From ANME-2 cluster archaeon (lineage in GTDB: Archaea; Halobacteriota; Methanosarcinia; Methanosarcinales; Methanocomedenaceae): 64,000 nt of DNA. A program made the position numbers and the translations under genes. Shown here piece by piece: positions 2,531 to 62,185 of this stretch. The DNA lies in assembly GCA_019429385.1 (NCBI GenBank), contig JAHYIS010000003.1:34825-98824 (forward strand), written 5' to 3'. Within the stretch, counting starts at the first letter, position 1; each line of letters starts with the position of its first letter. Under the pieces are notes generated by a model, which worked only from the letters and a program-made list of their open reading frames with translations, was not told where the DNA came from and ran no database searches.

Positions 2531-3075
2531 TAATTGCACTGACCGGTACACCGGGCACAGGGAAGACTTCTATTTGCGCTTTGCTGGAGCAGCATTACAG
2601 GATAATCGACCTCAATGCTTTGATAATAGGTGAGGGCCTGCACGCGGGTAAAGATGAACAGCGCGGTTCATTTGAGGCGGACATGGAAGCTCTCCAGGCC
2701 CGGGTGGATGAACTGGTAGCAGATAGGACCGCAACCGTGATTTTCGAAGGACACCTATCCCACCTGTTAACGGGCATTGATGGGCTTATTGTGCTTCGCA
2801 CCCGTCCGTGTGTGCTGGCACAGAGACTTGAGAACAGGGGGTACCCACCCCAAAAGGTTCAGGAAAATATGGAAGCAGAAGCTTTAGACGTGATACTGGT
2901 GGAAGCGGTGGAACGGTATGAAAGGGTTTATGAACTGGAGACTACCATGACCATACCCGAGGATGCTGTACGGGGGGTAATCTCAATGATACAGTGGCTT
3001 GAGTCAGGTGATCACGAGCAATTACGGGGATTTCTGCCAGGACGTTTTGACTGGAGCGAAGAGGTATTCGGATGA
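2527..3075 (+). CDS. putative adenylate kinase, Fap7/AK6-type P-loop NTPase
   Basis: N-terminal Walker A IALTGTPGTGKTS, about 180 aa, ATGA-coupled to hisC. Confidence 0.7.
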   Translation: MIIALTGTPGTGKTSICALLEQHYRIIDLNALIIGEGLHAGKDEQRGSFEADMEALQARVDELVADRTATVIFEGHLSHLLTGIDGLIVLRTRPCVLAQRLENRGYPPQKVQENMEAEALDVILVEAVERYERVYELETTMTIPEDAVRGVISMIQWLESGDHEQLRGFLPGRFDWSEEVFG

Positions 3076-4438: not shown

Positions 4439-4990
4439 ATGCCAGGATCGGAAATAAAGATACAGAACGTGGTTGCTTCAACTAAATTAGCTGATAGTTT
4501 TGATTTAGTAAGCATTGAATCAGTCCTTGAAGGTGCAGAATATAATAAAGCTAAATTTCCAGGTATGGTCTACCGGGTTACCAATCCGAAAGCAGCCTTT
4601 CTGATTTTTACTTCAGGTAAGGTAGTATGCACCGGCGCAAAGAATGTGGAAGATGTGGCAATTGTCATTAACAATGTTGCCAGGAAGATTGAATCTCTTG
4701 GCATGAAAGTGTTGATGGATCCTGAGATAACCATACAGAACATCGTTGCTTCAGCTGACCTTGGTACGAACCTGAATCTCAATGCAATTGCGGTAGGCCT
4801 GGGTTTCGAGAACATTGAATATGAACCTGAGCAGTTCCCCGGACTAGTGTACCGTATTAAATCACCCAAGATAGTAGTTCTCATATTCAGTTCCGGTAAA
4901 CTGGTAGTAACCGGAGGAAAATCTCCGGCAGATTGTCAGCGTGGAGTCGAGATCGTACGTGAGCAACTCGAAAGTATGTCGTTGCTCTGA
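4439..4990 (+). CDS. tbp: TATA-box-binding protein
   Basis: Two direct repeats (IQNVVAS... / IQNIVAS...; FPGMVYR / FPGLVYR; [12 protein letters not shown] / [12 protein letters not shown]). Confidence 0.95.
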
Positions 4991-5520: not shown

Positions 5521-6207
5521 CTACTTTTGCCTGATTGCCTGGAACTGGGCTGTCTCATAAGGATATTCGGGCATTTCTGATAGTTCCTTTATACAGTATC
5601 TCCGCTGGTTGCGGTTACCGGTACGTTCAAGTTTATCCTCCCGGTATAATCGGGAGAGGTAGGTGGACACCGTGCTCAGGTTGATGGGGCCATATATCCG
5701 GTCATAGTCACTTTTTACTTCAAGTGATGTGAACCAGTGTCCCTTGTATTCAAAATTGAGGAAAAGTTCCAATCGTTCTTTAATGGTAAGGGACTCGTTC
5801 TTTAGCTGGCTGTATTCTTCAACAGCAATGCCAAAGTTACGAGTCCTTGGGGTTTTGGGTGGTGTGGTTTGAGATGTTTGAAAAGCAGGTTGATTGAATT
5901 GAGCTGTCTGTACTGGTTGGGGCGGCATGGCAGGAGTGTTAACCATTTGAGGTGCAGCAAAACCAGTCTGTTGTGAAGTTGTTTGTATAGAATTGTACAG
6001 GTTGGTGAACTTGTTCATGAGATTCAATAACGTTTCAGAAGTAAAATTGCCGATTATCTCAGTCCTGTCAATAGAACCGTTATCCATTTTTATTTCGACA
6101 CGTATTTCCATTTCATTGTCCTCAATAGTGGCAATATATACCGAAGGAAGGCAGCCGCAAATCCCCTCAGATTGCGGCAGGCATCCCTCGTTTCGGAAGT
6201 ATTCCAT
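5521..6207 (-). CDS. hypothetical protein with a C-terminal winged-helix-like domain and a Q/P/T-rich linker
   Basis: 228-aa ORF. N-terminal ~75-aa Cys-containing domain, a low-complexity QQTGFAAPQMVNTPAMPPQPVQTAQFNQPAFQTSQTTPPKTP linker, and a C-terminal ~90 aa resembling wHTH (STVSTYLSRLYREDKLER). Confidence 0.6.
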   Translation of the reverse strand: MEYFRNEGCLPQSEGICGCLPSVYIATIEDNEMEIRVEIKMDNGSIDRTEIIGNFTSETLLNLMNKFTNLYNSIQTTSQQTGFAAPQMVNTPAMPPQPVQTAQFNQPAFQTSQTTPPKTPRTRNFGIAVEEYSQLKNESLTIKERLELFLNFEYKGHWFTSLEVKSDYDRIYGPINLSTVSTYLSRLYREDKLERTGNRNQRRYCIKELSEMPEYPYETAQFQAIRQK

Positions 6208-6661
6208 CCCCTCCGATGATTGTCCACTTTTACGTTGTGAATGTGTAATTCACACGCAGTGTTGTAGTTAACATGTGAATATACATCACTACTTGTATTT
6301 ATAGTACACAGTGGAAATAGGGGTAAATAGCAGTCTTTACAATAAAAAAACCATTTAACACATTTTTAAAGTAAAAATACTGTAATTTAAGCTGTTTTTC
6401 ATATTCACACCATCACAATACCTATTCACGCAAAATATTTACTATTTTAATTCTATTTATTTTTCCATAGGAAACAAGGGGGTTGACCTATTACAGTTGA
6501 ATACGTCAAATAACTCTTTAAAACCTTAAAAGTGAGATTAACACAGTTATATTCTATTCACACCAGTACACATTGCAGTGAAACCAGTCAATGTGTGAGT
6601 GTGATAATATACCTCCCCCTTTACACAATCAATATCAATCAAAAGGAATATTATAACGAAG
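6208..6661. promoter_or_regulatory. 454-bp AT-rich intergenic region with repeated TATTCAC and ORB-like boxes (candidate origin or regulatory hub)
   Basis: TATTCAC at 6402, 6423, 6555 (+) and 6275-6281 (-); AATTCAC at 6247. ORB-like: CACAGTGGAAATAGGGGTAAA 6307-6327, TCCATAGGAAACAAGGGGGT 6464-6483, TTACAGTTGAATA 6491-6503, TTGCAGTGAAACC 6573-6585, and inverted CCTCCCCCTTTACACAAT 6612-6629. Near-pure A/T stretch at about 6330-6400. Confidence 0.5.
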
Positions 6662-7765
6662 ATGTCTGATGAGCATGTTATTTCGGGGACCATTCTTTAT
6701 GGTGATGAGCCCATGCTTATCGAAGGATACCTGTGCGTGAAAGATGGCATAATCACAGAAGTGGGGACTGATCCGTGTGTAGACGCCACACTGGATGGAT
6801 TGGTGACTCCGTGTTTTGTCAATGCGCATACTCATATCGGTGATTCTATAATCAAGGACCCGCCACTGTCTGACCTGGATAGCCTGGTGCGACCTCCCCG
6901 TGGCCTGAAACATCGTGTACTCGGTGAATCGCTGGATGTCGACCTGAAGCGTGCCATGGACCGGACATTACGTGATATGATGCGCACAGGCACCTGTGCA
7001 TTTTGCGATTTCAGGGAAGGCGGTAGAGAAGGTGCATCCATGCTGGCAGATATCCTTGCCACATCCGCATACTCATCCTCAGGGCTCCAAGGGATGATTA
7101 TGGGCCGGCCTTATCAACCAGACAGGCCGGACAAGGATGAATTAAATGACCTGGTCAAGGTCTGCGATGGAATCGGTATGAGCGGGGTCAATGATGTTCC
7201 ATTCGAAGTGTTACAGGTTGCATCCAGTGTGGCCCGCAGGGAAGGAAAGCCTTTTGCCATACACGGAGGTGAAAAGGATATGTCAGATATCTCAAGGTCA
7301 ATTGAACTGGAGCCTGATTTTATTGTGCACATGACCCATGCTTCTCAGGCACATGTTAAACAGCTGGCAGATGCTGATATACCTGTAGTGGTCTGTCCCA
7401 GGTCGAATCTCGTGACGCGTGTGGGTTCTCCTACCCGCCCTCCGATCGCCAGGATGCTTGACATGGGCGTCACGGTTGCAGCGGGCACAGACAATGTTAT
7501 GTTGAATTCGGTCAATATGTTCTCTGAAATGGAATTCCTTTCAAAGGTATATGGGCTGGAGGACAGACAGGTATTTAATATTTGTACACTAAATGGTGCT
7601 CGGGTACTTGGACTGGCCGAACAATTCGGTTCAATACAGGAAGGAAAAAAGGCAAAGATAATGGTACTGGATAAAAGGTCTTCCAACTTATCTAACTGCC
7701 ATAATATGCTTGCCAGTTTTGTCAGGCGAGGCAGACCTGATGATATCAAGACCATCATCACTTAA
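6662..7765 (+). CDS. amidohydrolase family protein (metal-dependent, chlorohydrolase/deaminase-like)
   Basis: VNAHTHIGDS (HxH metal site), an internal HG/HM His, and a GTDN motif near the C-terminus. Confidence 0.8.
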   Translation: MSDEHVISGTILYGDEPMLIEGYLCVKDGIITEVGTDPCVDATLDGLVTPCFVNAHTHIGDSIIKDPPLSDLDSLVRPPRGLKHRVLGESLDVDLKRAMDRTLRDMMRTGTCAFCDFREGGREGASMLADILATSAYSSSGLQGMIMGRPYQPDRPDKDELNDLVKVCDGIGMSGVNDVPFEVLQVASSVARREGKPFAIHGGEKDMSDISRSIELEPDFIVHMTHASQAHVKQLADADIPVVVCPRSNLVTRVGSPTRPPIARMLDMGVTVAAGTDNVMLNSVNMFSEMEFLSKVYGLEDRQVFNICTLNGARVLGLAEQFGSIQEGKKAKIMVLDKRSSNLSNCHNMLASFVRRGRPDDIKTIIT

Positions 7766-7780
7766 TCGGAGGGAGATTTC

Positions 7781-8233
7781 ATGAAAAGCGAGATATTTAA
7801 GAAAATAGTAATTGCAACGGACGGTTCAGCAAACTCAGAGAATGCCGTTAAGCACGCTATTGAATTAGCACGGATATCGGAAGCCAGCCTTTCTGCTGTG
7901 TATGTTGTGGACACGGGAGCTTTTGCTTCCATTCCTGTTGATATGGCAATGGGCAACATGTATGAGATTTTGAAAACGGAAGGTGACAATGCCGTCAAAC
8001 AGGTGGAAGACCTGGCCCAGGCTGCGGGTATTGAAACAGAACGCTTTACTATTGAAGGTCATCCTGCTGAGGAAATAATTAAATTCTCTGAGAATATTTC
8101 AGCTGACCTCATTGTTATGGGTACTCTTGGAAAAAGCGGTCTTGACAGGTTCTTGCTGGGAAGTGTCGCAGAAAAGGTATCAAGGAACTCACATACACCT
8201 GTTATGGTCGTACGAGGGGAAAACCCCAAATAG
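7781..8233 (+). CDS. universal stress protein (UspA family)
   Basis: KKIVIATDGSANSENAVKHAIELA ... IVMGTLGKSGLDRFLLGSVAEKVSRNSHTPVMVV. Confidence 0.85.
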   Translation: MKSEIFKKIVIATDGSANSENAVKHAIELARISEASLSAVYVVDTGAFASIPVDMAMGNMYEILKTEGDNAVKQVEDLAQAAGIETERFTIEGHPAEEIIKFSENISADLIVMGTLGKSGLDRFLLGSVAEKVSRNSHTPVMVVRGENPK

Positions 8234-8273
8234 TACAAACTCCATCAACAGCCCAAATAGGAGTTTTACAAAA

Positions 8274-9125
8274 ATGCCTGGTTTTACAACAGTTGAAGAC
8301 ATTATGGTACGGGATGTTGCATATGCTTCATTGCCTGGTTCCAGGGACGAGGTACTTGAAATCCTGAAAAATAAACATGTTTCCGGCGTACCTGTGGTAA
8401 AGAAGGATGAGCTTGTTGGTATCGTCACCAGGACTGACCTTTTAAAGTATCCTGAAGAAGAGCAGCTAGCTATCCTGATGCGGAGAGACCCTATTACCAT
8501 CAAACCCGGTGAGTCTATTGTGGATGCTGCCAGGACAATACTCGAACATAAGGTCCGGCGGCTACCCGTTGTTGAAAACAGCACCTTGGTAGGTCTGATC
8601 ACCATCGCTGATATTGTAGGTGCTATTGCAGGTTTGAGTATTTCAGAGCCTATTGGTGATATTATCAGCGACCAGACAATCGTTATCTGGGACAAGACCC
8701 CGGTTTCAGTTGTGGGAATGATCATGGAGATGGCAGAGGTAAAAGCTGCACCTGTAGTGAATGTGAACCGTGAAGTCCTGGGTGTAATAAATGATAAGGA
8801 CCTGATAAATATAAGCGTCATTGAAGATTCGCTTGGGCATTCGGATATGTCTGCGGGTTCGGATGACGATGCATGGACCTGGGAATCAATGCGTGATACA
8901 ATGAGCCTGTATTACAGTGTGTCAAGGATAAAACTTCCGGATTCTACAGTGAGCGAAGTAATAAACCTAAAAAGGGAACCTGTGACCGTTGTACCCAATA
9001 CTACCGTGAGTGATGCTGCAAGGAAAATGAAACGCAACAATATCGACCAGATGCCTGTCCTGTCCGGACGCAATAAACTTATTGGTATGTTGCACGACTT
9101 TGACCTGCTTAAGGCACTGGTATGA
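8274..9125 (+). CDS. CBS-domain protein (four CBS repeats)
   Basis: ORF 8112..9125. The upstream part overlaps usp, so the likely start is ATG 8274 (MPGFTTVEDIMVRDV). Repeated CBS signatures: SGVPVV, RRLPVV, AAPVVN, DQMPVL. Confidence 0.85.
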   Translation: MPGFTTVEDIMVRDVAYASLPGSRDEVLEILKNKHVSGVPVVKKDELVGIVTRTDLLKYPEEEQLAILMRRDPITIKPGESIVDAARTILEHKVRRLPVVENSTLVGLITIADIVGAIAGLSISEPIGDIISDQTIVIWDKTPVSVVGMIMEMAEVKAAPVVNVNREVLGVINDKDLINISVIEDSLGHSDMSAGSDDDAWTWESMRDTMSLYYSVSRIKLPDSTVSEVINLKREPVTVVPNTTVSDAARKMKRNNIDQMPVLSGRNKLIGMLHDFDLLKALV

Positions 9126-11096: not shown

Positions 11097-12083
11097 CTAC
11101 TGAACTTTCAAATGCTCTTTTCCTGCCTGTGTCGTCTTCCTACCCTGGGGAGTACGTTGAATAAAACCGATCTGGATCAGATACGGTTCATATACATCTT
11201 CAATAGTCCTGACCTCTTCCCCCACTGAAATGGCAATGGTTTTCAGGCCCACGGGTCCACCTTCGAAATCATCTGTTATTATACTAAGTATACGCCTGTC
11301 AAGTTCATCCAGGCCCAGCTTGTCTATACCCAGCATAGTCAGCGCATCATCAGCAACTTCCTGAGTTATCGTTCCATCAGCCCTAACAAGTGCAAAATCC
11401 CTTGCACGCCTCAGTAACCTGTTAACAATTCTGGGCGTTCCACGGCCGCGTTTAGCAATTTCTACAGTCCCATCTCGGGTTATGGGGATACGCAGGATCG
11501 AAGCACTTCGATGCACTACCTCCACAAGTTCCCTAATAGTGTAATGATTTAGCCTGAAAGTAATGCCAAATCGATCCCTGAGCGGTGAACTCAGCAGTCC
11601 TATCTTTGTGGTTGCACCAATAAGAGTAAAATGTTCCAGGTTGAGCTTTATTGACCTGGCACTTGCCCCCTCCCCTATCATCACATCTATTTCCATATCC
11701 TCCATAGCAGGATACAAAATCTCTTCAATAATTGAATTCATGCGATGGATCTCATCAATAAAGAGTACATCTCCTTTTTTAAGTGAAGTAAGTATTGCGG
11801 CAAGGTCTCCGGCCTTTTCCAGGATAGGTCCTGAAGTACTTTTTATACTGACTCCCATTTCATGTGCGATAATATTTGCCAGAGTGGTTTTTCCAAGACC
11901 AGGTGGTCCTGAAAATAAGATGTGGTCAAGTGGTTCACCCCGCTTTTTTGAGGCTTCAATAGCTATTTTTATTGATTCCTTTATGATATTTTGACCTATG
12001 AACTCATCAAGTTTTATGGGGCGGATGGTTGAATCTTCTGTTTCATGATCCTGCTCTGAAGGAGAGACTATTCTTTCTTCCAT
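11097..12083 (-). CDS. ruvB: Holliday junction branch-migration ATPase RuvB (bacterial type)
   Basis: [11 protein letters not shown], Walker [12 protein letters not shown], Walker [22 protein letters not shown], and C-terminal winged helix [10 protein letters not shown]...[17 protein letters not shown]. Confidence 0.95.
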
Positions 12084-12085
12084 AT

Positions 12086-12676
12086 TTACTCTTTAACTTC
12101 TTTTAATTTCAACAGTGCTGCCTTAATTAATACTTCGATCGATGGTGCTTCAAAATCCGCAGATACAGCATCTACAGCTTCCCTGGACTCTCTTTGTTGA
12201 AAACCCAATGATACAAGAGCACTTACTGCATCATAATTGATATTACTGGTGCTGGTGGGAACAAATCCTTTCATTTTCTTTTTCATCTTATCCTTTAATT
12301 CCAGTATCAATCTCTTAGCATTTTTCTTGCCAATTCCTGAAATATTTGTAAGGACTTTTTCATCCTCATTGAGGATCGCACTGGCAAAATCTTCTAATGT
12401 AATTTCAGAAAGGATCTTCAAAGCTATCTGGGGCCCGACTCCTGAAACGCTAATTATTAATTTGAACATCTCAAGTTCGGTTGAGTTCATGAACCCGTAG
12501 AGATTGAGCGCATCCTCCCTGACATTCAGATGCGTATAAAGTGTTACGTGTGATTGTTTCGTAAGTTCCTGTAATGCCGGTTGCGGAACATTTACATGAT
12601 ATCCTATTCCTCCGACATCAATAACAACAAAACCTTCACCACATTGCGCAATTTCGCCACGTAAATGTGAAATCAT
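12086..12676 (-). CDS. ruvA: Holliday junction DNA-binding protein RuvA
   Basis: MISHLRGEI...GYHV OB-fold N-terminus. Two HhH motifs ([13 protein letters not shown]; [16 protein letters not shown]). C-terminal domain III. Confidence 0.9.
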
Positions 12677-12680
12677 ATCA

Positions 12681-13151
12681 TTATCTCATTATATGTATAT
12701 GACATAAAGCAATCGAAAGACCATCAGCCGCATCATCAGGTCTGGGAAGTTCATCCAGACCCAGAAGCCTTGTTATCATCTCCTGCATCTGTCGTTTATC
12801 AGCACGTCCTGTACCTGTTATCGCCTGCTTGATTTGAGCCGGTGTATATTCGAATAAAGGTATTTGTTTTTGTTGTGCAGCAAGTAATATCACCCCTCTT
12901 GCTTCACTTACCCTCATTGCAGACGTGACATTTTTATTGAAAAAGAGTTTTTCAATAGCGACAATTTGAGGATTGTACTTTTCAAAAAGCGTTTTGATCT
13001 CATTATAGATCTCCAGTAGGCGCTCTGATGTTTGTTTTTCAGCAGAAGTTCGAATACATCCATAGCTTACAGGAATGATCTTTTCTTCTGATTTTTGTAT
13101 TACTCCAAAACCAACGGTTGCAAGTCCCGGATCGATTCCGATAATGATCAT
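12681..13151 (-). CDS. ruvC: crossover junction endodeoxyribonuclease RuvC
   Basis: ORF 12681..13202. Family-typical start MIIIGIDPG at 13151. Motifs: AIEKLFF, EYTPAQIKQAITGTGRADKRQ, DDAADGLSIALCH. Confidence 0.9.
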   Translation of the reverse strand: MIIIGIDPGLATVGFGVIQKSEEKIIPVSYGCIRTSAEKQTSERLLEIYNEIKTLFEKYNPQIVAIEKLFFNKNVTSAMRVSEARGVILLAAQQKQIPLFEYTPAQIKQAITGTGRADKRQMQEMITRLLGLDELPRPDDAADGLSIALCHIHIMR

Positions 13152-13171
13152 GGTATTTTTCTCGGCGATTA

Positions 13172-13636
13172 TTAGCTTTCGTATTTTTCTATATAATCCC
13201 AAATTTCTTGATCGGTTTTTGGCATATTACCTTCAAAAAATGTCTTTATCCATTGTAAATACCCAATTCCACTTGGACTTCTGTGTTGCTTCACAAGTTT
13301 GATTAAAAGTCTAACACATGAAATAATCTCCCCATAAGTAAAACTCCTTTCTCCCTCAATTCTGTTAAGCATCAATTGACCTTTCACAGATTGTGAGATG
13401 TTATACGCAAGCGAACCTTTCTTTTGACCATCGAAATCTTTTTTGAGCTTATTGTACGCAGATAACACTGTTTTATCTTTAAGAGCGGGATTTTCCTGCC
13501 ACATAAATAAAACTACGGATTCTATACTGACAAATATTTCATGATAATCGGCTATATCCTCAATAGCCACTTTTCCGTTACCGTTTTCGACCAATTCTGC
13601 CAATTGTTGATTTACATGAACCCTTGTGTTCTCCAT
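13172..13636 (-). CDS. hypothetical protein
   Basis: 154-aa ORF with no recognised domain. It lies 20 nt upstream of ruvC on the same strand. Confidence 0.5.
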   Translation of the reverse strand: MENTRVHVNQQLAELVENGNGKVAIEDIADYHEIFVSIESVVLFMWQENPALKDKTVLSAYNKLKKDFDGQKKGSLAYNISQSVKGQLMLNRIEGERSFTYGEIISCVRLLIKLVKQHRSPSGIGYLQWIKTFFEGNMPKTDQEIWDYIEKYES

Positions 13637-13828
13637 ATATTTTCACCGCCCTTGTGTTCTATAAATAGATTTGTACTTACGCCGCCACTTACCGATGCAT
13701 TGCGCCTTCCATCAATTTATCGCCTCGGTCTGATTTCTTGAAGCTATCATTTTTCTGATGAGCTCTCAGGTATGCATATTGGAAGAATTTCATATGCATA
13801 CATTATTTTCCGGATAATCGTCCCATTT

Positions 13829-14398
13829 TCACTTTATGTGGGCTAACCTCTGATTAATTTCATCAAGGTCAAAGTATTCAGGATCAAAATCATAATCCAG
13901 CCAATCCACCATTTCTTCATGCTCGGGATGTTGCGGATCTTTGAGGATTTCAAGGAGTTCATCATATCCATAAGGACCGCCACAATCTTCCGGAGGACAG
14001 TCACGTTTACCCTTAAGGCAGACCGGATAGTGTTTATCTACTTCCAGAGGGAGGATTTTTTCAACCAGGATTATGTGATACCAGGAATCCCCAAAATCGT
14101 ATTCGTAGATGAATTTAGTATTTTCTTCAAAGACCACCTGGCTTAATGTTATTGTTCTTTCATCAATCACATCAAACATATCAGCCGGGTCAGGTTCACC
14201 ATATATCATTCCATCTATGATAAACTGATGAAGGTGATAACCGTCCCACCCCATCAATTCCTGAATAATGACATGAAGTTTAGATAATGTAATATCGCTT
14301 TTAACCTGTATTCGTCTCCAGATGGGTGGTTTTATCTCATCAAGTGTTACTTTTATCTGATAGATATGAATATCTTCATTCCGTTTCTTTTTAGGCAT
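13829..14398 (-). CDS. pRiA4b ORF-3-like (MM3350-like) domain protein
   Basis: IYQIKVTLDEIKPPIWRRIQV...LSKLHVIIQELMGWDGYHLHQF...YEYDFGDSWYH is the family signature as I recall it. C-terminal CPPEDCGG. Confidence 0.75.
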   Translation of the reverse strand: MPKKKRNEDIHIYQIKVTLDEIKPPIWRRIQVKSDITLSKLHVIIQELMGWDGYHLHQFIIDGMIYGEPDPADMFDVIDERTITLSQVVFEENTKFIYEYDFGDSWYHIILVEKILPLEVDKHYPVCLKGKRDCPPEDCGGPYGYDELLEILKDPQHPEHEEMVDWLDYDFDPEYFDLDEINQRLAHIK

Positions 14399-14541
14399 GA
14401 CAATCACCAATTTCTTATGGAATAATGTCCTGTTAATCGGTTATTAGATTTTCGATTAATTTGAGGAGATTGACTGCATACGAAACCTGAATAAGAAATG
14501 TTTATGTTGTAAAAAATTAATTAATTTCCACTCTCATAAAT

Positions 14542-17500
14542 ATGATCGCACTACATGGAACCTGGAAACCGTCAGAAAGAATAGACACACTGGGAGATTT
14601 CTTCATATGGGGTGAGTTATCCACAGCTTCCACCATCAAACGCAGAGGGCGCCCTCCAAAGATCTCTGCCAGTACACCCCGGCCTCATCCATTTCAGGCC
14701 CCAAACGAGGACCTGAACCGGGTGATAGCATTCCTGGAAAATGGCAATGACAGCATAATCACTAACAGGACATATCAGGATAATGTATTGTTATCGCTTC
14801 CTTCATTTTCAAAATCTCCCCAGGCATCACCTGATTTACTAAGAGATGATGGCAGTGAGGAGACAGATGAGCCAGTGGGTCTAATACCATGGAAAGTACA
14901 TGGTTTAAGCATTCTTCCCCAGGACGCAGTAACATTACTCAACTCACTCTCAGGAGCATGGATCGAATATGACAACACTGTCATTGGAACCGATCTGAGG
15001 TTCTGGAGTAATGTCTCAAAATTTGCACTTGAACTGTTATCAAACCAGCATTTTTTTCCTGGCATGGTTATTTCTGAAGAAAGTAAGATATTTTCCAGAT
15101 GGCAGTATATGCTCAATGATGAGGAAGACAGGATGCGCTTTTCAATCCTTGCAAACTCAATGCCTCCTGTTTGCAGATCACTCCTCCAGAATACTATTCC
15201 AAATACCCGGGAAGCTCTCATATCGGATTTTCTCAATAGTAGCATTAACGGATGTATCAAAAACTGGATGTCAATCTCAGAGATCAAATCAAAAAAGCCC
15301 GGTCTCTCTGAAATATGGTTACGATCCCTGACAACCGGAGAACCGATACAAGTCAATAAGTCAGTTCTTAACAACCTTTCAAAAGGTTTACAATCATGGG
15401 AAGCCCCGATACATGAAATTGAAAAATCCGGATTTCGCACATCGTTCCGGCTTGAACCCCCCATTGAGGAGGAAACAGACATCTGGAATATGCGCTATTT
15501 TCTTCAGGCTTCGGATGACCCAAGCCTGCTTGTGCCTGCTGAAAAAGTCTGGAAAGAATCAAAAGACACACTTAATTTCCTTAACCGTAAATTCGACCAA
15601 CCCCAGGAAAAACTTCTTGCCGATCTTGGGAAAGCCTCCAGGCTATACCCTCCTATCGAGGCCAGTCTCCATTTAGCAAGACCCACTGCCGCCCGGCTTA
15701 GCACGCAGCAGGCTTATTCATTTTTAAAAGAAGTTGTGCCCTTATTTTCAGAGAGCGGATTCGGGGTCCTTATTCCACCATGGTGGAAAAAAGGGGGATC
15801 AAGTTCGAAGCTTGGTGTAACATTAAATGTGAAACAAAAGAAAGACCCTAAAACCAGCAAAGGATTGTTCGGTTTTAACTCAATTATCCAGTACGACTGG
15901 CAGATCGCCATTGGCGGTGAGCAGTTAAGTGAAGAGGAATTTGAGAATCTTGTAAACCTGAAAGAGCCGCTTGTACGCATCAGGGGAGAATGGGTAGAGG
16001 TCAAAAATGAAGATATTGCAGCTGCTATTAAATTCTTCAAATCCGGAAAATCAGGTGAGATGAAACTGGACGAAGCCCTCAGGCTGAGCGCCGGACTTGG
16101 AGAATCGGAAACAGGCCTCCCAGTTGGCGGATTTAATGCAACCGGAGTGCTATCCGAGCTATTTGAGCGTTTATCAGGGAGAACCGGAATAGAAGATTTA
16201 ACACAGCCCGGTGATTTTGTTGGTGAGCTTCGACCTTATCAGGTCAGGGGCTTCTCGTGGCTTGCGTTTTTGCGGGAGTACGGACTGGGAGCATGCCTTG
16301 CAGATGATATGGGACTTGGTAAGACGATCCAGCTTCTTGCCCTGCTCATAAAGGATAAAGAAGAAGGCATCAATAAACCAACCCTCCTGATATGTCCCAC
16401 TTCCGTAGTTGCTAACTGGTATCGGGAAGCGCAAAAATTTGCACCATCCCTCAAGGTTATGATACATCACGGCACAGCCCGGCTGAAGAAAAATGAATTC
16501 CATTCCGAAGCTGTCAAATTCGACCTGGTCATCAGCACCTATGCCCTTGCTTACCGGGATGAGGATATGTTCGAAAATGTGGATTGGAGCGGGGTTGTGC
16601 TGGATGAAGCGCAGAACATTAAGAACCGGTTCACAAAGCAATCCCAGGCTGTCCGTAAAATCAAATCAGACTATCGAGTGGCCCTTACAGGCACACCTGT
16701 TGAGAACCGTTTATCAGAACTCTGGTCTATTATGGAGTTTTTAAATCCGGGCTACCTCGGCTCGGCAGAAGGTTTCAGGAGAGGTTTTGCGATGCCTATT
16801 GAACGCTATAATGACAAAGAAGCAGGCATGAAGCTTCGAAGTATTGTTTCACCATTCATCCTTCGCCGCCTCAAGACAGACCCTGCCATCATAACAGACC
16901 TGCCTGATAAAATTGAGACAAAGGTATACTGCAACCTTACAAAAGAGCAGGCTACACTCTACAAGGCTGTTGTTAAAGATGTGCTTGAGAGAATCGAAAG
17001 CTCAGAAGGAATTGAAAGAAAAGGGATCGTGTTATCAGCACTTACAAGATTAAAACAGGTATGCAATCACCCGGCGCAGTACCTGGATGACGGTTCGGTA
17101 CTCCCGGGACGCTCAGGCAAGTTGAATCGTATCACTGAGATGATGGAAGAGGTGATAGCTGAAGATGATGCTGCGCTTGTCTTCACCCAGTTTTCCGTGA
17201 TGGGAAACATGCTTAAAACGCATCTCCAGCATGTCTTTGGCCAGGAGGTACTCTTTTTGCATGGCGGAGTGTCCCAGAAACAGCGGGACCATATGGTTAT
17301 GAGATTTTCAGAAAAGGGCGGACCCCGGATATTCATTCTTTCACTCAAAGCTGGCGGGGTGGGTCTGAACCTCACCCGTGCCAGTCACGTGTTCCACTTT
17401 GACCGGTGGTGGAACCCGGCCGTTGAGAACCAGGCAACAGACCGTGCTTTCAGGATCGGGCAAACCAAAAATGTGCAGGTTCACAAGTTTGTGTGCGAAG

Positions 17501-17655
17501 GGACTCTTGAAGAGAGGATAGATGAGATGATAGAGGATAAGAAAGCACTTGCCGAGAATGTTGTTGGGACGGGCGAGGGCTGGCTGACAGAGATGTCGAC
17601 CGAGCAGTTGAAGGGTTTATTTGCATTGAGGCAAGAATCAGTGATGGATGAATAA
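14542..17655 (+). CDS. SNF2-family helicase with a long N-terminal SNF2-associated region
   Basis: 1037 aa. Helicase core from ~aa 560: LRPYQVRGFSWL, LADDMGLGKT, VLDEAQNIKN, LTGTPVENRL, SLKAGGVGLNLT, WWNPAVENQATDRAFRIGQ. Confidence 0.9.
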   Translation: MIALHGTWKPSERIDTLGDFFIWGELSTASTIKRRGRPPKISASTPRPHPFQAPNEDLNRVIAFLENGNDSIITNRTYQDNVLLSLPSFSKSPQASPDLLRDDGSEETDEPVGLIPWKVHGLSILPQDAVTLLNSLSGAWIEYDNTVIGTDLRFWSNVSKFALELLSNQHFFPGMVISEESKIFSRWQYMLNDEEDRMRFSILANSMPPVCRSLLQNTIPNTREALISDFLNSSINGCIKNWMSISEIKSKKPGLSEIWLRSLTTGEPIQVNKSVLNNLSKGLQSWEAPIHEIEKSGFRTSFRLEPPIEEETDIWNMRYFLQASDDPSLLVPAEKVWKESKDTLNFLNRKFDQPQEKLLADLGKASRLYPPIEASLHLARPTAARLSTQQAYSFLKEVVPLFSESGFGVLIPPWWKKGGSSSKLGVTLNVKQKKDPKTSKGLFGFNSIIQYDWQIAIGGEQLSEEEFENLVNLKEPLVRIRGEWVEVKNEDIAAAIKFFKSGKSGEMKLDEALRLSAGLGESETGLPVGGFNATGVLSELFERLSGRTGIEDLTQPGDFVGELRPYQVRGFSWLAFLREYGLGACLADDMGLGKTIQLLALLIKDKEEGINKPTLLICPTSVVANWYREAQKFAPSLKVMIHHGTARLKKNEFHSEAVKFDLVISTYALAYRDEDMFENVDWSGVVLDEAQNIKNRFTKQSQAVRKIKSDYRVALTGTPVENRLSELWSIMEFLNPGYLGSAEGFRRGFAMPIERYNDKEAGMKLRSIVSPFILRRLKTDPAIITDLPDKIETKVYCNLTKEQATLYKAVVKDVLERIESSEGIERKGIVLSALTRLKQVCNHPAQYLDDGSVLPGRSGKLNRITEMMEEVIAEDDAALVFTQFSVMGNMLKTHLQHVFGQEVLFLHGGVSQKQRDHMVMRFSEKGGPRIFILSLKAGGVGLNLTRASHVFHFDRWWNPAVENQATDRAFRIGQTKNVQVHKFVCEGTLEERIDEMIEDKKALAENVVGTGEGWLTEMSTEQLKGLFALRQESVMDE

Positions 17656-17678
17656 TGGAATATACGGATAGTTGAATC

Positions 17679-18563
17679 ATGGGCAGGTATGAAGACTTCT
17701 GGGGCGGCTATACTCCTTCAAAGCCAATACAGGTGGAAGGCGGTATCAAAGCCAAAAGCAAGAAGGGCAGTATCGGAGATACCTGGTGGTCAAAACGTTG
17801 GGTGAGTGTCCTGGAATCCTTTGGCTGGAGCAACCGGCTTGAGCGGGGAAGACGATATGCCAGAAAAGGCCAGGTGCTTGATTTTGAACTTTCGGCCGGA
17901 AAAGTCGAAGCAAAAGTCCAGGGCTCGGTCCGGAAACCTTATTCAGTTACTATTGAGATTAAACCGATTACTGAAAAATCATGGGATTATGTCATAGAAG
18001 AGATGTCTCAAAAGGCAATATTCGCAGCAAAACTACTTGCAGGCGAGATGCCACATGATATTGAAGAAGCCTTTGAAGCAGAAGATATATCGCTGTTCCC
18101 TGAAAAATCGAAAGATATAAAGACGCACTGTTCATGTCCGGATAGTGCAAATCCCTGTAAACATATTGCTGCACTGTATTATATTTTGGCTGAAGAGTTT
18201 GACCGTGACCCTTTCATGATCTTTGAATTGCGTGGCCGGACAAAGGATGAAATTATTTCATCTCTTCGCCAGAAGCGCACTGACGAAAGCCATCCTGAAC
18301 CAGAAGAAATTTTTGATGTTGCGCAAGTAAAGGAAGTTGCTTTGTCCATGGATGATTTCTGGGAAGGGGGGGATAGCGAATCATTTTCAGTTAATATCTC
18401 GCTACCTGATGTATCGGCAGCAATTATCAAACGGCTGGGAACACCGGAATTCTGGGATAGCAAGGTCGATTTTGTAGAGAAAATGGGCGGGTATTATGAA
18501 GAGATTAGCAGGCGCGCTATTGTGACTGCTTATTGTGAACAGACAAAAACGAAAAAGAAATGA
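17679..18563 (+). CDS. SWIM zinc-finger protein
   Basis: CSCPDSANPCKHIAALYYIL matches the CxCxnCxH SWIM motif. The N-terminal WWSKRW...RLERGRRYARKGQV is typical of the SNF2-partner family. 23 nt downstream of the SNF2 gene. Confidence 0.85.
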   Translation: MGRYEDFWGGYTPSKPIQVEGGIKAKSKKGSIGDTWWSKRWVSVLESFGWSNRLERGRRYARKGQVLDFELSAGKVEAKVQGSVRKPYSVTIEIKPITEKSWDYVIEEMSQKAIFAAKLLAGEMPHDIEEAFEAEDISLFPEKSKDIKTHCSCPDSANPCKHIAALYYILAEEFDRDPFMIFELRGRTKDEIISSLRQKRTDESHPEPEEIFDVAQVKEVALSMDDFWEGGDSESFSVNISLPDVSAAIIKRLGTPEFWDSKVDFVEKMGGYYEEISRRAIVTAYCEQTKTKKK

Positions 18564-19243: not shown

Positions 19244-19306
19244 CGAAGTGAAAGTATTCGAAGTGAAAGTATTCGAAAAAAGGTGAGAATCGAACGTGAA
19301 ATTTTA
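19244..19306. repeat. 15-17-bp tandem repeats abutting the tRNA-Leu 3' end (2 perfect CGAAGTGAAAGTATT plus 2 degenerate)
   Basis: 19244-19258 and 19259-19273 are identical. 19274-19290 (CGAAAAAAGGTGAGAAT) and 19291-19306 (CGAACGTGAAATTTTA) are degenerate. Confidence 0.75.
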
Positions 19307-19391
19307 TGCGGGGGAAGGGATTCGAACCCTTGAACTCCTTCGAGAATAGATCTTGAGTCTATCACCTTTGGCCTGGCTTGGTTACCCCCGC
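19307..19391 (-). tRNA. tRNA-Leu (anticodon CAA)
   Basis: Manual fold of the reverse complement: acceptor GCGGGGG/CCCCCGC, D arm ACC..GGT, anticodon stem ATAGA/TCTAT with loop CTCAAGA, long variable arm, T arm AAGGG-TTCGAAT-CCCTT, discriminator A. Confidence 0.9.
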
Positions 19392-19407
19392 ACAGGGGAA
19401 ATGGGAA

Positions 19408-58400: not shown

Positions 58401-59570
58401 TTACTCTTCCAGGTCATCGATGAGTTTCATTATTTTAATGGCCTTGTGCTTGTATTTTGCGCGTATGGATTGGTACTCTTTTTCTGACAGGGCACCATCG
58501 GCATAGTCCTCATCCAGTTCATTAAGGACCTTTAACAGGGCTTTCTTCGCTGATTTGAGCTCACCTATATCGAAACGTTCCAGATCTTCTGAATCGAGCA
58601 CAGAAACAGCAGACACGCTGTGCCCAACCTCCTCACTGGTTTCGATGTCTTCCCCGGACCCTTCATCATATTCCTCGGTTTCCTGTTCCAGATAAATATC
58701 TTCATCCTCTTTTGCTGGCCTGGCTTTTTTCGTTCCCTCTGTTAAGCCCTTGCCAGGAAGAGTTTTGCCCCTCAGGATAGGAATACCGATAACCAGGATA
58801 ATGATCAGCAACAGGAGCAGAATTAGAGAAACACCTTCCGTGTCAATGCCTGAACGACTCAGTACAAAAGATATCTCAATAAATTGAGGCTGTGCCCAAT
58901 TATATGTCATCGCCCCTTCCAGGTTCTCGACTGAATCAGCCTCTATCTTGCTGCCGTCTTCATTGACAATCCTGGTTTTCAGGTCATCTGATTTGACCAG
59001 TTTGACAACCAGTGCCGGCAAGCCGGATGCAGGGATATAGTTATAGTTCACGTTCGTGGGATATTTCAGTTTCTTGGTATAGGTCACAGATTCGGTCATT
59101 TTACCGGTAGGTTCTGCCGGCACCATGTACTGCACCCGGTACATGGGAGTCATGCCAGTTCCTGCCAGAATAGTGTCATTCCATCCGATGACGTTATCAT
59201 TGACAAAATAAACATTCAAAGGAATACCAGGGGTGTTTGCAGACATCCCAAGTTTTCTCATTTCCTCATTGAATATTCCATTTGGCACCCATGAAAATAT
59301 TGGTCCAGTGTAGTTTCCAGTTCCAATATTTTTGAATACGATGGTTTCAGCTACTTTTAGATAGCCTGGATTTGAAACTTGGTCAATTTCAATAAGATGT
59401 AGTACTATAACGACATTTGAACCATACGACGTGGCCGCACCACCCATTATACTCCCACCATTACTGCCACCTGTGGCATAATCTTCAAAAGCATATACCG
59501 GAGATGTAAAAAGCAGCAATACCAGGACAGACGATACAATAATGGACAGAGCCGGATCTTTTCTTTTCAT
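58401..59570 (-). CDS. hypothetical type-I membrane protein (signal peptide, ~230-aa ectodomain, one TM, acidic tail with a SHOCT-like end)
   Basis: Signal peptide ALSIIVSSVLVLLLFTSPVYA; TM LILLLLLIIILVIGIPIL; C-terminus ADGALSEKEYQSIRAKYKHKAIKIM. Confidence 0.6.
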   Translation of the reverse strand: MKRKDPALSIIVSSVLVLLLFTSPVYAFEDYATGGSNGGSIMGGAATSYGSNVVIVLHLIEIDQVSNPGYLKVAETIVFKNIGTGNYTGPIFSWVPNGIFNEEMRKLGMSANTPGIPLNVYFVNDNVIGWNDTILAGTGMTPMYRVQYMVPAEPTGKMTESVTYTKKLKYPTNVNYNYIPASGLPALVVKLVKSDDLKTRIVNEDGSKIEADSVENLEGAMTYNWAQPQFIEISFVLSRSGIDTEGVSLILLLLLIIILVIGIPILRGKTLPGKGLTEGTKKARPAKEDEDIYLEQETEEYDEGSGEDIETSEEVGHSVSAVSVLDSEDLERFDIGELKSAKKALLKVLNELDEDYADGALSEKEYQSIRAKYKHKAIKIMKLIDDLEE

Positions 59571-60105
59571 TGATGAGTACTTCCTTTATATCCTAACGAG
59601 ATTATGATGGTTATTTAATAATGTGACCTGCTTTTTAGTATAGTTATTCACGTGATTTTTCAGAAGTAATTTATTTTAATAAATACAAGTGAATATATAT
59701 AACAATTTCTATACAGTTTTTATTATTCACTATATATAATTCTACTTAAATTGTTGTTATTGTTTCACTCACATTCTAGTCCTTCACCATAAACCCCTCA
59801 AAAACCGGGCTTTAATTAATTCTTTGTGTCTACGAATTAATAATCTCATGAGGTAAATCCCAAAAGTGAATATTTTTAAGTTAGAAGAGGCACCCCAGGA
59901 AATAGGGTAAAACGATGCAGAGCTTGTCGTTCCAATATTATCAAACTACCTCGGATGCTGCGAACTTTCACCGACATTGATATGACCATCAGGTGTATAA
60001 ATAAAGGCAGATTAATGTAAACACGTTTGCTAATCTTTATCTATTCTCTGATTCTAGATTCCAAATAATTGATCGGAAAAACCGGATGCTCTGGATACAT
60101 GGATA
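59571..60105. promoter_or_regulatory. 535-bp AT-rich divergent intergenic region sharing motifs with 6208-6661
   Basis: TATTCAC at 59644 and 59723 (+) and at 59688-59694 and 59865-59871 (-). GGAAATAGGGTAAA at 59897-59910, versus GGAAATAGGGGTAAA at 6313-6327. Confidence 0.5.
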
Positions 60106-60630
60106 ATGGTAAATGGAGAAAATATCATGGAATTTGAAAAGGTTGTCAATGAAGAAGATGTGCTCTGGTTCGAATTTACCTGTCCGTTCTGTTCCCGGTC
60201 ATACCGTATCAACAAGACATGGGAACGTGTCGATGGGGGAAGTACATGCATGTATGACTACCCGGATGATAACATCCCGGATGATCACTGCCAGCACCTG
60301 GTCTCATGGGACAACTCTGAAGGTGGCAGCGATTACAATTGTGAGATCAATGAACTGGAATTTTTGACCAGGATGTCAGACCTGCCGTTTCGGGTCTGGG
60401 ATGTGCTCCAGGAAGTGGTGAACAATGATGGTCTTCCTGAGGGTTGTGAGGTTGGTATCAGGGCATTTTATGTGAACAGCTATATCGTATTTATTTTCTG
60501 TAATGACCCGCAAACCCTTGCACATGTGGTGCTGGAAAAAACCAAAGAACATATTCGCAGATATAATGACCAGTATTGTCTGGACGCCGTTGACCTTGAG
60601 CGTTATTCAGAAATTCTAGTACCTGAATAA
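60106..60630 (+). CDS. hypothetical Cys/His-containing protein
   Basis: 174-aa ORF (the alternative start ATG 60127 gives MEFEKVV). CPFC...C...HC.H candidate metal site. The C-terminal FCNDP module is repeated at 62081-62185. Confidence 0.5.
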   Translation: MVNGENIMEFEKVVNEEDVLWFEFTCPFCSRSYRINKTWERVDGGSTCMYDYPDDNIPDDHCQHLVSWDNSEGGSDYNCEINELEFLTRMSDLPFRVWDVLQEVVNNDGLPEGCEVGIRAFYVNSYIVFIFCNDPQTLAHVVLEKTKEHIRRYNDQYCLDAVDLERYSEILVPE

Positions 60631-60649: not shown

Positions 60650-62074
60650 ATGGCAATTAAAGGAAGTGGACATATCACCGGAGTGGAAGAACTAATAGAA
60701 GTCGTTAGAAGCGAACAGGGGAAGGAAATAATTCACATTGATAGAATTATCGAACAAATGCAGTATCTCGATATAGAAGATGAAAGAGAGGTCCAGACCC
60801 TGGTCGAACTATTACAGCAAGAAGACGATGGTTATCTCCGGAGTGTTGCAGCTATGGCCCTCGGAGAAATTGAGAATAACGAGACAATTGAGCCACTTAT
60901 CCGGGCCTTCACAACAGATGAGGACAGCCTTGTCCGAAGTATGGCTGCACTGGGTCTTGGAAATTTAAAGAGCGAAGAAGCAGTTGAACTACTTATCCAG
61001 TCCTTAACAACAGACCCTGAACAGACGGTCAGAAGTGACATAGCATGGGCCCTGGGGGAGATAGGGGATACAAGGGCAGTTGAGCCCCTTATCTCGTCAT
61101 TGAAAAATGATGAAGAAAGGCGGGTCAGATGCAGCGTGGCACGGGCTCTGGGAGAGATACGGGACAAAAGGGCTGTGAGCCCGCTGATAAGAGCTCTCAG
61201 GGATGACCATAGATACGTCCGGATGGTGGCAGCAAAAGCTCTTGGAAAGATTGGAAATAAGAAAGCAGTCGTGCCGCTTATTCAGGCATTGAAAGGTGCC
61301 TCTCTGGTACATGAGAATGCCATCATTGCACTTGGCAGGATTGGAGACCACAGAGCGCTGGGCCCTCTGGTCGGGATGTTACGTGAACCCTGGGGAGAAT
61401 ATGAAGAGGTCAGGAAATACGCAGCCAGAGCACTGGGGGAAATGAGGAATACCAGGGCTGTTCCCAGCCTTGTTCTTGCTTTGGCGGATGAGGATATTGA
61501 GGTTAGCAGGTGTGCAGCCGAGGCTCTGGGTGAGCTCATGGATAAAAGAGCTGTTGTGCCGCTTATCTATTTCCTTGAGATGAGCAGTGACGAGATATTC
61601 CGCTTGAACGCAATTTCTGCACTTGGACTTATCAATGACAAAAAAGCGGTAGAACCTTTGATAAAGATCCTGTTGAATGATGAAAGCAGTATGGTCCGAA
61701 TTGAAGCAACAACCGCTCTCATGCTTTTAATGGATGAAAGGGCAATTGAACCGCTAATCCAGACTCTACGCTTTGACCCGGATAGTGAAGTGCGAAAGGA
61801 AACAATGTTTCCTCTTTGTTTCATTATGAATAAAGTAGCGGTTGAGCCTCTGTCCGACATATTGGTAACAGAAATAGACAGTGAGGTCCGTAATGCTGCA
61901 ATACATCATTTATCAGTACTGAAAGATGAAAGGGCGGTACCGGCTCTTATCCGGTCTTTTGTGTCAGATAAAGACCGTGAGGTCCGGGAGAATGCTGCGC
62001 GGGCCATAAAAAATATTGGGGGGGTCAATGCCCCTGGAGCATTGTTCCAGGAAATGGAAATCAGCGAGGAATGA
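60650..62074 (+). CDS. HEAT-repeat (PBS-lyase-like) protein
   Basis: About 14 tandem ~31-aa repeats of the form D..VR..AA.ALGEIGD.RAVEPLI.AL. Confidence 0.85.
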   Translation: MAIKGSGHITGVEELIEVVRSEQGKEIIHIDRIIEQMQYLDIEDEREVQTLVELLQQEDDGYLRSVAAMALGEIENNETIEPLIRAFTTDEDSLVRSMAALGLGNLKSEEAVELLIQSLTTDPEQTVRSDIAWALGEIGDTRAVEPLISSLKNDEERRVRCSVARALGEIRDKRAVSPLIRALRDDHRYVRMVAAKALGKIGNKKAVVPLIQALKGASLVHENAIIALGRIGDHRALGPLVGMLREPWGEYEEVRKYAARALGEMRNTRAVPSLVLALADEDIEVSRCAAEALGELMDKRAVVPLIYFLEMSSDEIFRLNAISALGLINDKKAVEPLIKILLNDESSMVRIEATTALMLLMDERAIEPLIQTLRFDPDSEVRKETMFPLCFIMNKVAVEPLSDILVTEIDSEVRNAAIHHLSVLKDERAVPALIRSFVSDKDREVRENAARAIKNIGGVNAPGALFQEMEISEE

Positions 62075-62080
62075 CCTCCT

Positions 62081-62185
62081 ATGATGGGGGAGGTACGGAT
62101 CAGGACCTTTTACAGATATGGTTATGTTGCATACGTATTCTGCAATGACCCCGAAACACTGGAGAAGGTGGTGTTTGTAAGGTAA
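62081..62185 (+). CDS. 34-codon ORF paralogous to residues ~113-145 of the 174-aa protein (small protein or gene relic)
   Basis: MMGEVRIRTFYRYGYVAYVFCNDPETLEKVVFVR versus GCEVGIRAFYVNSYIVFIFCNDPQTLAHVVLEK, about 55% identity by eye. Absent from the ORF track (under 60 aa). Confidence 0.4.
   Translation: MMGEVRIRTFYRYGYVAYVFCNDPETLEKVVFVR

Follow-up and report, generated by a model that had tools for sequence, protein, structure and literature searches.

GTGAATA boxes in two intergenic spacers of an ANME-2 cluster archaeon, one of them beside a gene for a predicted winged-helix protein

We compared two intergenic spacers, lying 53 kb apart, in a 64-kb stretch of DNA from an ANME-2 (anaerobic methanotrophic archaea, group 2) cluster archaeon (GenBank assembly GCA_019429385.1, contig JAHYIS010000003.1, positions 34,825 to 98,824 of the forward strand), hereafter the window. 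Both the first spacer (region 1, 6.1-6.7 kb) and the second (region 2, 59571-60105) carry several copies of a seven-base box, viz., TATTCAC or, read on the opposite strand, GTGAATA, and one of the genes adjoining region 1 is predicted to code for a winged-helix DNA-binding protein. Together with the window, the sequence examined includes ~185 kb of related loci (L001-L015), which served for the comparison of box clusters.

Genes beside the two spacers

Region 1 separates an amidohydrolase gene from the gene for the winged-helix protein, and this gene order, with a spacer of 454-697 bp and a TBP gene nearby, is kept in all the ANME-2 relatives that we fetched. Region 2, with a GC content of 32%, is an ordinary divergent promoter spacer between a minus-strand gene for a protein of 389 amino acids (aa) and a plus-strand operon. 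The genes in question are as follows:

5521-6111, minus strand: gene for the winged-helix DNA-binding protein, 196 aa from the conserved start M33; an earlier open reading frame (ORF) extends to 6207 (228 aa)
58401-59570, minus strand: gene for the 389-aa protein, a membrane protein with one transmembrane helix besides a signal peptide and an acidic tail, as read from the translation
60127-60630, plus strand: gene for a Cys-rich protein of 167 aa, earlier called as a 174-aa ORF from 60106
60650-62074, plus strand: gene for a HEAT-repeat protein, the downstream partner of the Cys-rich gene both here and in the related locus L017

The region 1 gene encodes a predicted winged-helix DNA-binding protein that is found across Methanosarcinales. 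Its homologues number over 100 and come from ANME-2 as well as Methanolobus, Methanomethylovorans, and Methanohalophilus; the initial annotation, which took the genes flanking both spacers for lineage orphans, was mistaken in this case. In this protein a Q/P-rich linker joins a small N-terminal domain to a C-terminal winged helix-turn-helix (wHTH) domain with an invariant STVSTYLSR helix. In the AlphaFold model the C-terminal domain adopts a winged-helix fold (predicted local distance difference test scores of 85-92 over residues 110-175), and the nearest solved folds recovered by Foldseek are regulators of the RosR, MarR, PadR, and Fur types, with weak E-values (~1e-2) and a consistent topology. 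Some of its orthologues carry a BlaI/MecI/CopY annotation; profile searches of Pfam, NCBIfam, and PDB with the 228/196-aa protein itself recovered no family.

An alignment of the homologues places the conserved start at M33 (position 6111). Upstream of this start codon are two Shine-Dalgarno-like copies of ATC(N)GAGGGGAT, separated by 33-45 nt, indicating that the 228-aa ORF call begins too early and that the true start is at 6111. The pair is kept from ANME-2 to Methanolobus and Methanomethylovorans, and it could be a translational control element. Its copies lie at the following positions:

Window, 6161-6172 and 6206-6217, minus strand: pair in the leader of the wHTH gene
L014, 5152-5166 and 5197-5211: the corresponding pair
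L015, 9923-9934 and 9960-9971: the corresponding pair
L039, about 2959-2969 and 2992-3002: the corresponding pair

As for the genes flanking region 2, no family could be assigned to the 389-aa protein by Pfam, NCBIfam, or PDB profile searches, and a scan of Joint Genome Institute (JGI) metagenomes gave no relative of it; its gene is also present in L010 and L013, the nearest relatives of this locus. An ORF adjoining region 2 shows 95% identity to an ORF in an ANME-2 cluster metagenome-assembled genome, and nearby genes have matches in such genomes carrying an ANME-2 or Methanosarcinales label. The layout of genes around the spacer is as first described, except for the start of the 174-aa ORF: the homologues of the Cys-rich protein begin at M8, and hence its gene probably starts at 60127 and codes for 167 aa. 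Only 17 homologues of this protein were found, and the same three profile searches placed it in no family.

A seven-base box shared by the two spacers

Region 2 contains four exact copies of TATTCAC, as had been counted in the initial annotation, at 59645 (+), 59689 (-), 59724 (+), and 59866 (-), each 1 nt above the position first given and all within 59645-59872. Region 1 likewise has four, at 6275 (-), 6402 (+), 6423 (+), and 6555 (+), together with two further copies of the shorter ATTCAC at 6237 (-) and 6248 (+). The frequency of TATTCAC in the window as a whole is unremarkable (12 copies vs 9.85 expected), and eight of these 12 fall inside the two spacers. The window has 26 intergenic spacers of at least 80 bp, namely regions 1 and 2 and 24 others (~5 kb in all); the latter, which include equally AT-rich ones, hold two copies of ATTCAC and none of TATTCAC, in agreement with the earlier observation, which covered the intergenic regions upstream of tbp, polB, trpC, the Psr-like operon, artA, and the ATPase.

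In an unbiased comparison of 6- to 8-mers against 4.4 kb of other spacers, ATTCAC and GTGAATA came out far ahead as enriched words shared by the two regions (p~1e-9 and p~1e-12, respectively, with the other spacers as background). Dinucleotide shuffles of each region yielded a mean of 0.11-0.14 copies of the box and never more than two, and any 7-mer occurring at least four times in both regions was seen in one of 3000 such shuffles. Across the related loci L001-L015, clusters of at least three boxes within 300 bp were found only at the orthologues of region 1. The initial annotation had allowed that TATTCAC might prove equally dense in most AT-rich spacers; on the sequence available it does not, and given that the other spacers have no copy and the shuffles at most two, we reject a composition effect of AT-rich spacers. 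The clustering of the 7-base box in the two spacers is non-random, and the shared box is specific and non-compositional. We know of no operator that matches GTGAATA, and a literature search for TATTCAC or GTGAATA in archaea returned only primer sequences and unrelated papers. A sigma-70 promoter scan was set aside, being inapplicable to archaea.

A second motif had also been proposed as common to the two regions. It is indeed present, at 6307-6328 in region 1 (CACAGTGGAAATAGGGGTAAAT), as first placed, and in region 2 (CACCCCAGGAAATAGGGTAAAA) at 59891-59912, which is 2 nt off the earlier assignment of 59889-59910. Both copies contain the exact 10-mer GGAAATAGGG and then, offset by a 1-nt indel, TAAA, such that the motif can be written GGAAATAGGG(G)TAAA. 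When up to two mismatches are allowed, it has two matches vs 0.63 expected, a count reached in 12 of 100 shuffles, and two AT-rich regions of this size would have 1.4 exact 10-mers in common by chance. Taken alone, this second motif is weak, near chance, and not significant.

Elements and conservation of each spacer

We footprinted region 1 in four lineages of ANME-2, in which the wHTH protein has 50-76% identity to that of the window. This recovered discrete conserved blocks in an otherwise diverged spacer, with the GTGAAT cores invariant and the neighbouring bases variable; judging from these alignments, the region 1 boxes are under selection. The elements, including those resembling the archaeal origin recognition box (ORB), are as follows:

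6237-6253, no strand assigned: conserved palindrome GTGAAT-N5-ATTCAC, part of the winged-helix gene leader
6271-6289, minus strand: box c, ATATTCACATGTTAACTAC on the minus strand, the best conserved box
6296-6303, minus strand: putative TATA box of the winged-helix gene, TATAAATA
6309-6328, plus strand: short ORB, CAGTGGAAATAGGGGTAAAT, ORB-like with the spacer before the G-string 2 nt shorter
6402-6429, plus strand: boxes d (TATTCACACCATCACAA at 6402) and e (TATTCACGC at 6423), 21 nt apart
6464-6483, plus strand: canonical ORB, TCCATAGGAAACAAGGGGGT, its core invariant in the footprint alignments
6555-6561, plus strand: box f, TATTCACACCAGTACA, upstream of the amidohydrolase promoter and conserved in three of the four lineages

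Box c, whose conserved form is ATATTCAC(A/T)TGTTAACTAC, lies 14 nt downstream of the putative TATA box, approximately where transcription of the winged-helix gene is expected to start, and all four lineages have a TATA-like octamer at the position of the latter. Box d is conserved in all four lineages, and the short ORB is kept in all ANME-2 orthologues as AGTGGAAAT-N-K-GGGT. Read on the strand of the wHTH gene, the order is short ORB, TATA box, box c, GTGAAT-N5-ATTCAC palindrome, and leader. Since the conserved blocks comprise an Orc1/Cdc6-type box and operator-like GTGAAT boxes over the core promoter and leader, region 1 is a conserved control region. In Methanolobus, a TGTGAA/TTCACA inverted repeat likewise flanks the leader of the wHTH orthologue.

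Region 2 has the following elements:

59620-59765 (~145 bp), no strand assigned: hypervariable segment of 14-30% GC that carries three of the four boxes
59645-59651, plus strand: box 1, TATTCAC, in the context TTATTCACGTGATT, an imperfect palindrome; in the strain-variable segment
59685-59696, plus strand: ACAAGTGAATAT with box 2 (GTGAATA at 59689-59695); in the strain-variable segment
59724-59730, plus strand: box 3, TATTCAC; in the strain-variable segment
59866-59872, plus strand: box 4, GTGAATA, directly abutting the TATA-like TTAAAAATA read on the minus strand
59898-59912, plus strand: GGAAATAGGGTAAAA, which resembles the region 1 short ORB in degenerate form, lacking the left ORB half and having a 3-G string
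59996-60007, plus strand: TATAAATAAAGG, the likely TATA box of the 167-aa/HEAT-repeat operon

The corresponding spacers of L010 and L013 are identical to each other and almost identical to that of the window at the 5' end and over ~59766-60105; of the motifs, they share with the window only the box at 59866 and the GGAAATAGGGT element (59891-59912). GGAAATAGGGTAAAA is retained in these two loci, and it is missing from the more distant homologous ones. The latter (L011, L012, L016-L018), in which the Cys-rich gene has homologues at 51-81% identity, present other gene contexts. In the 78%-identical locus L017, conservation of the spacer is confined to TATAAATAAAGG and the bases immediately downstream, with nothing kept upstream of this promoter, neither boxes nor an ORB-like element. 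A metagenome scan with the alignment of the 167-aa protein recovered seven loci, all of which lack the motifs and have a different gene context, and a scan of genome contigs for region 2 recovered a single contig, which begins 30 nt before the gene. On this comparison, three of the four region 2 boxes appear to be young and strain-specific.

Two correspondences argue that the resemblance between the regions is not trivial. First, ACAAGTGAATAT at 59685 matches box c of region 1 (ACATGTGAATAT at 6271) at 11 of 12 bases and box c of L014 at all 12, and the 12-mer pattern ACAWGTGAATAT occurs in the window only at 6271 and 59685. Second, the box at 59866 and the GGAAATAGGGT element have the same order and strand as box c and the short ORB, with a gap of 25 vs 31 nt, and the TATA-like TTAAAAATA lies between them on the minus strand.

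No structured RNA or known RNA family was found in either spacer: there is no Rfam match at E<=1 in 59450-60250, and the region 2 RNA folds are insignificant (z-scores of +0.25 and -0.54). In L010 a 4-nt indel interrupts a 21-aa ORF that spans 59915-59980 in the window, and we therefore discount this ORF as coding sequence.

The pairing of the Cys-rich and HEAT-repeat genes is conserved in L017, where the HEAT-repeat partner has 886 aa. In that locus an extra 62-aa Cys-rich ORF (L017 2009-2197) lies between the conserved promoter and the 167-aa gene, and equivalents are found in L016 and L018; the relatives with this ORF are 75-81% identical, and it is absent from the window. Just 3' of the HEAT-repeat gene of the window is a 34-aa ORF (62081-62185, plus strand; MMGEVRIRTFYRYGYVAYVFCNDPETLEKVVFVR), which resembles the C-terminal part of the 167-aa protein (IRAFYVNSYIVFIFCNDPQTLAHVVLEK) and looks like a fragmentary paralogue or pseudogene remnant. 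In the sister strain L010 (features at 1-685 and 7738-9006), the region 2 neighbourhood has a DDE transposase 3.7 kb upstream and, downstream, an AAA_14/DUF4143 ATPase with a string of small unassigned ORFs; apparently the same ATPase gene occupies ~62.9-64.0 kb of the window, running off its edge. Overall, the neighbourhood of region 2 looks like variable genome.

Operator, origin, and other readings of the boxes

The initial annotation proposed that the two loci are co-regulated by one DNA-binding factor. Given a shared box that is specific and non-compositional, a common factor is a reasonable inference; however, co-regulation as a stable trait is weakened by the poor conservation of the region 2 boxes and their differing flanks. 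We tentatively favour a reading wherein the GTGAATA boxes would be operator or half-site elements of one sequence-specific transcription factor, the best candidate for which is the region 1 winged-helix protein, acting as an autoregulator. What makes it the obvious choice is the concentration of conserved boxes on the core promoter of its own gene. There, a protein bound to the boxes between the TATA box and the start codon would block the recruitment of RNA polymerase; a site downstream of the TATA box is the classical position of an archaeal autorepressor. Region 2 would be a recently evolved, strain-level, and probably weaker target of the same factor, with three sites 75-160 bp upstream of the 389-aa gene and one beside a possible leftward promoter. 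We infer the occupancy of the boxes, the identity of the binding protein, and the repression from features of the sequence.

Several observations weigh against this proposal. L010 and L013 have, in place of the segment ~59620-59765, a shorter sequence that is essentially unalignable and free of ATTCAC, such that strains almost identical in the flanks lack three of the four region 2 boxes, and no boxes are present upstream of the homologues of the Cys-rich gene in L011, L012, and L016-L018. Region 2 shows no fixed spacing of its boxes and no clear dyad like the palindrome of region 1. Further, a T precedes GTGAAT in five of the six region 1 boxes (TGTGAAT, often GGTGTGAATA) and in none of the four region 2 boxes, which are preceded by A or C (A/C-GTGAAT) and set in pure AT. 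Finally, the box is not conserved upstream of the Methanomethylovorans wHTH orthologue, and its link to the wHTH protein is therefore not general.

Some of these observations also favour a second reading, by which the region 2 boxes have no function and arose through local duplication, inversion, and turnover in a hypervariable AT-rich stretch, the sharing of the 7-mer being coincidental. It would fit the lack of conservation, the AT-only flanks unlike those of region 1, and the finding that the region 2 boxes lie inside short direct or inverted repeats of each other (AAGTGAATATATATAA, AAGTGAATATTTTTAA), as would result from local copying; moreover, only the 7-mer core is common to the two regions, with no extended similarity. 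However, a coincidence with the very box that is conserved in region 1 is improbable in light of the shuffles, the word is absent from every one of the 24 other spacers irrespective of their AT-richness, and one copy matches the conserved box c over 12 nt. Local duplication would account for the multiplicity of the boxes but not for the choice of the seed word. This is the main rival to the operator reading; on balance, we regard the absence of function in region 2 as somewhat unlikely.

Two further readings involve the replication initiator Orc1/Cdc6. The ORB of region 1 (6464-6483) agrees with the Methanomicrobia consensus TCCA[GC]T[GT]GAAA[CT][AG]A[AT]GGGGT (Ori-Finder 2, PMC4164010) at 17 of 20 positions and is its sole match in the window. 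The counterparts in L014 (about 4875-4895) and L039 (2696-2716) agree at 18 and 19 of 20 positions; the ORB with 19 of 20, in Methanomethylovorans, is ~300 nt upstream of the orthologous wHTH gene, where the divergent neighbour gene differs. An ORB is found roughly 300-400 nt upstream of the wHTH gene in all the ANME-2 relatives fetched and in Methanomethylovorans; it was not found in Methanolobus WCC4. It is conceivable, if improbable, that this ORB belongs to a cdc6-distal (secondary or dormant) origin or to an Orc1/Cdc6-wired promoter, with the GTGAATA boxes serving as partner sites for the wHTH protein and region 2 as a nascent second site, the latter because the box, TATA-like, and ORB-like elements follow in the same order there.

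The initial annotation had also considered the two regions as origin-like. Read in this way, they would be Orc1/Cdc6 sites or origins, in which GGAAATAGGG(G)T would act as the ORB and the AT-rich stretch would be the unwinding element. We regard this as very unlikely, and for region 2 it is not supported. In its favour, the genuine ORB and the conserved short ORB of region 1 flank 138 bp of 22% GC (6326-6463), the Methanomethylovorans orthologue has its own ORB, and region 2 falls to 14-20% GC over 59671-59770. However, AT-richness does not discriminate origins, since the promoter spacers here are likewise AT-rich. Region 2 has no ORB within three mismatches of the Methanomicrobia consensus; its GGAAATAGGGT element, with 11 of 20 positions by a gapless hand count, lacks the TCCA-N3-GAAA left half, has the wrong spacing, and was rejected as an ORB, and conservation of the region 2 elements stops at close strains. 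As for region 1, it has a single full ORB and a shortened one, which are direct repeats on the plus strand, whereas an oriC has two or more ORBs, typically inverted around the unwinding element. A Pfam scan limited to the 30 longer ORFs of the window recovered no orc1/cdc6 gene, none is listed in the gene tables for 10 kb on either side of the wHTH gene in L002 and L015, and neither orc1/cdc6 nor whiP was found adjacent to the ORB. The cumulative GC skew has no turning point at 6.3 or 59.8 kb; GC skew is weak in archaea.

Other ORB candidates were rejected: the inverted one at 6205-6228 is the Shine-Dalgarno-like repeat ATCNGAGGGGAT in the wHTH leader, the inverted one at 6610-6630 is not conserved, and the box at 59724, which agrees with a Methanococcaceae ORB at 16 of 18 positions, was judged a chance match of low-complexity, AT-rich sequence, the ORB of this lineage being the canonical one. 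A scan of viral contigs with the ORB pattern gave 16 scattered single matches, roughly the estimated chance level, and literature searches on ANME origins yielded nothing helpful.

Least credible is the earlier suggestion of paralogous control modules, by which the spacers would be copies of one ancestor, arising from segmental duplication or gene conversion. Besides the boxes, both contain the 12-mer ATAAATACAAGT and the 10-mer GGAAATAGGG, and they have one box and an ORB-like element in similar order, but their best local alignment (score 28, insignificant in either orientation) is no better than that of shuffled sequence (mean 24, maximum 35), their shared k-mers exceed the shuffles just modestly, the 12-mer is oppositely oriented to its adjacent box in the two regions, and the flanking genes are unrelated, such that paralogy is essentially excluded at the sequence level. 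The remaining probability falls to another factor or an architectural protein.

If the operator reading of the GTGAATA boxes holds, a cluster of operator boxes next to an autoregulated winged-helix regulator would be a familiar arrangement; the protein family and the box match nothing described that we found. As in the autoregulated wHTH repressors of archaea and bacteria (MarR, PadR, and RosR types), whose operators overlap the core promoter, a wHTH gene lies beside conserved boxes placed between the TATA box and the start codon, and further copies of the box occur upstream of other genes, as in a small regulon. The region 1 protein differs from those systems in belonging to no family described in Pfam or NCBIfam and having no PDB sequence match, and its layout, with the wHTH domain at the C-terminus behind a small N-terminal domain and a Q/P-rich linker, is unusual. 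Another comparison is with the Thermococcales glycolytic motif (TGM), TATCAC-N5-GTGATA, which is bound by TrmB-family regulators. The likeness lies in a short TATCAC-like half-site near promoters, which is once inverted with a 5-nt spacer (6237-6253). The boxes described here differ in their extra T (TATTCAC vs TATCAC), in the reversed arms of the palindrome, and in being mostly isolated half-sites, and no TrmB-family gene was identified here. With respect to archaeal ORB/oriC systems, region 1 is alike in having one consensus element with a G-string beside a stretch of 22% GC; it differs from an archaeal oriC in its single full ORB accompanied by a shortened direct one, in that no adjacent orc1/cdc6 or whiP gene was found, and in the lack of a skew signal. 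Region 2 differs in offering only a look-alike.

Elsewhere in the window, the block 11097-18563, which adjoins a tRNA-Leu gene (19306-19392), starts with a low-GC stretch (36-41% over ~11.5-14.5 kb). It codes for a bacterial-type RuvB (RuvB_N, lid, and RuvB_C domains), a SWIM zinc-finger protein, and a SNF2/DUF3670 helicase of 1037 aa, and it has several small ORFs on the minus strand. L002 has other genes listed in the interval from the neighbourhood of region 1 to PolB, which suggests that this block is an inserted island.

To our knowledge, almost nothing is known of transcription regulation in the methane-oxidising archaea of ANME-2, for which pure culture is not possible. Region 2 by itself is of modest import, being a lineage-restricted promoter spacer with recent boxes, and a more valuable lead may be the conserved ORB upstream of the wHTH gene, with no cdc6 gene seen in the sequence examined around it. 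If the proposed operator function is borne out, these archaea would have a defined cis-element, GTGAATA, for which ACAWGTGAATAT or GGTGTGAATA is the best form, and a candidate for its cognate regulator, conserved across Methanosarcinales. The two natural haplotypes of the region 2 spacer, with and without three of its boxes, constitute a natural experiment for metatranscriptomes.

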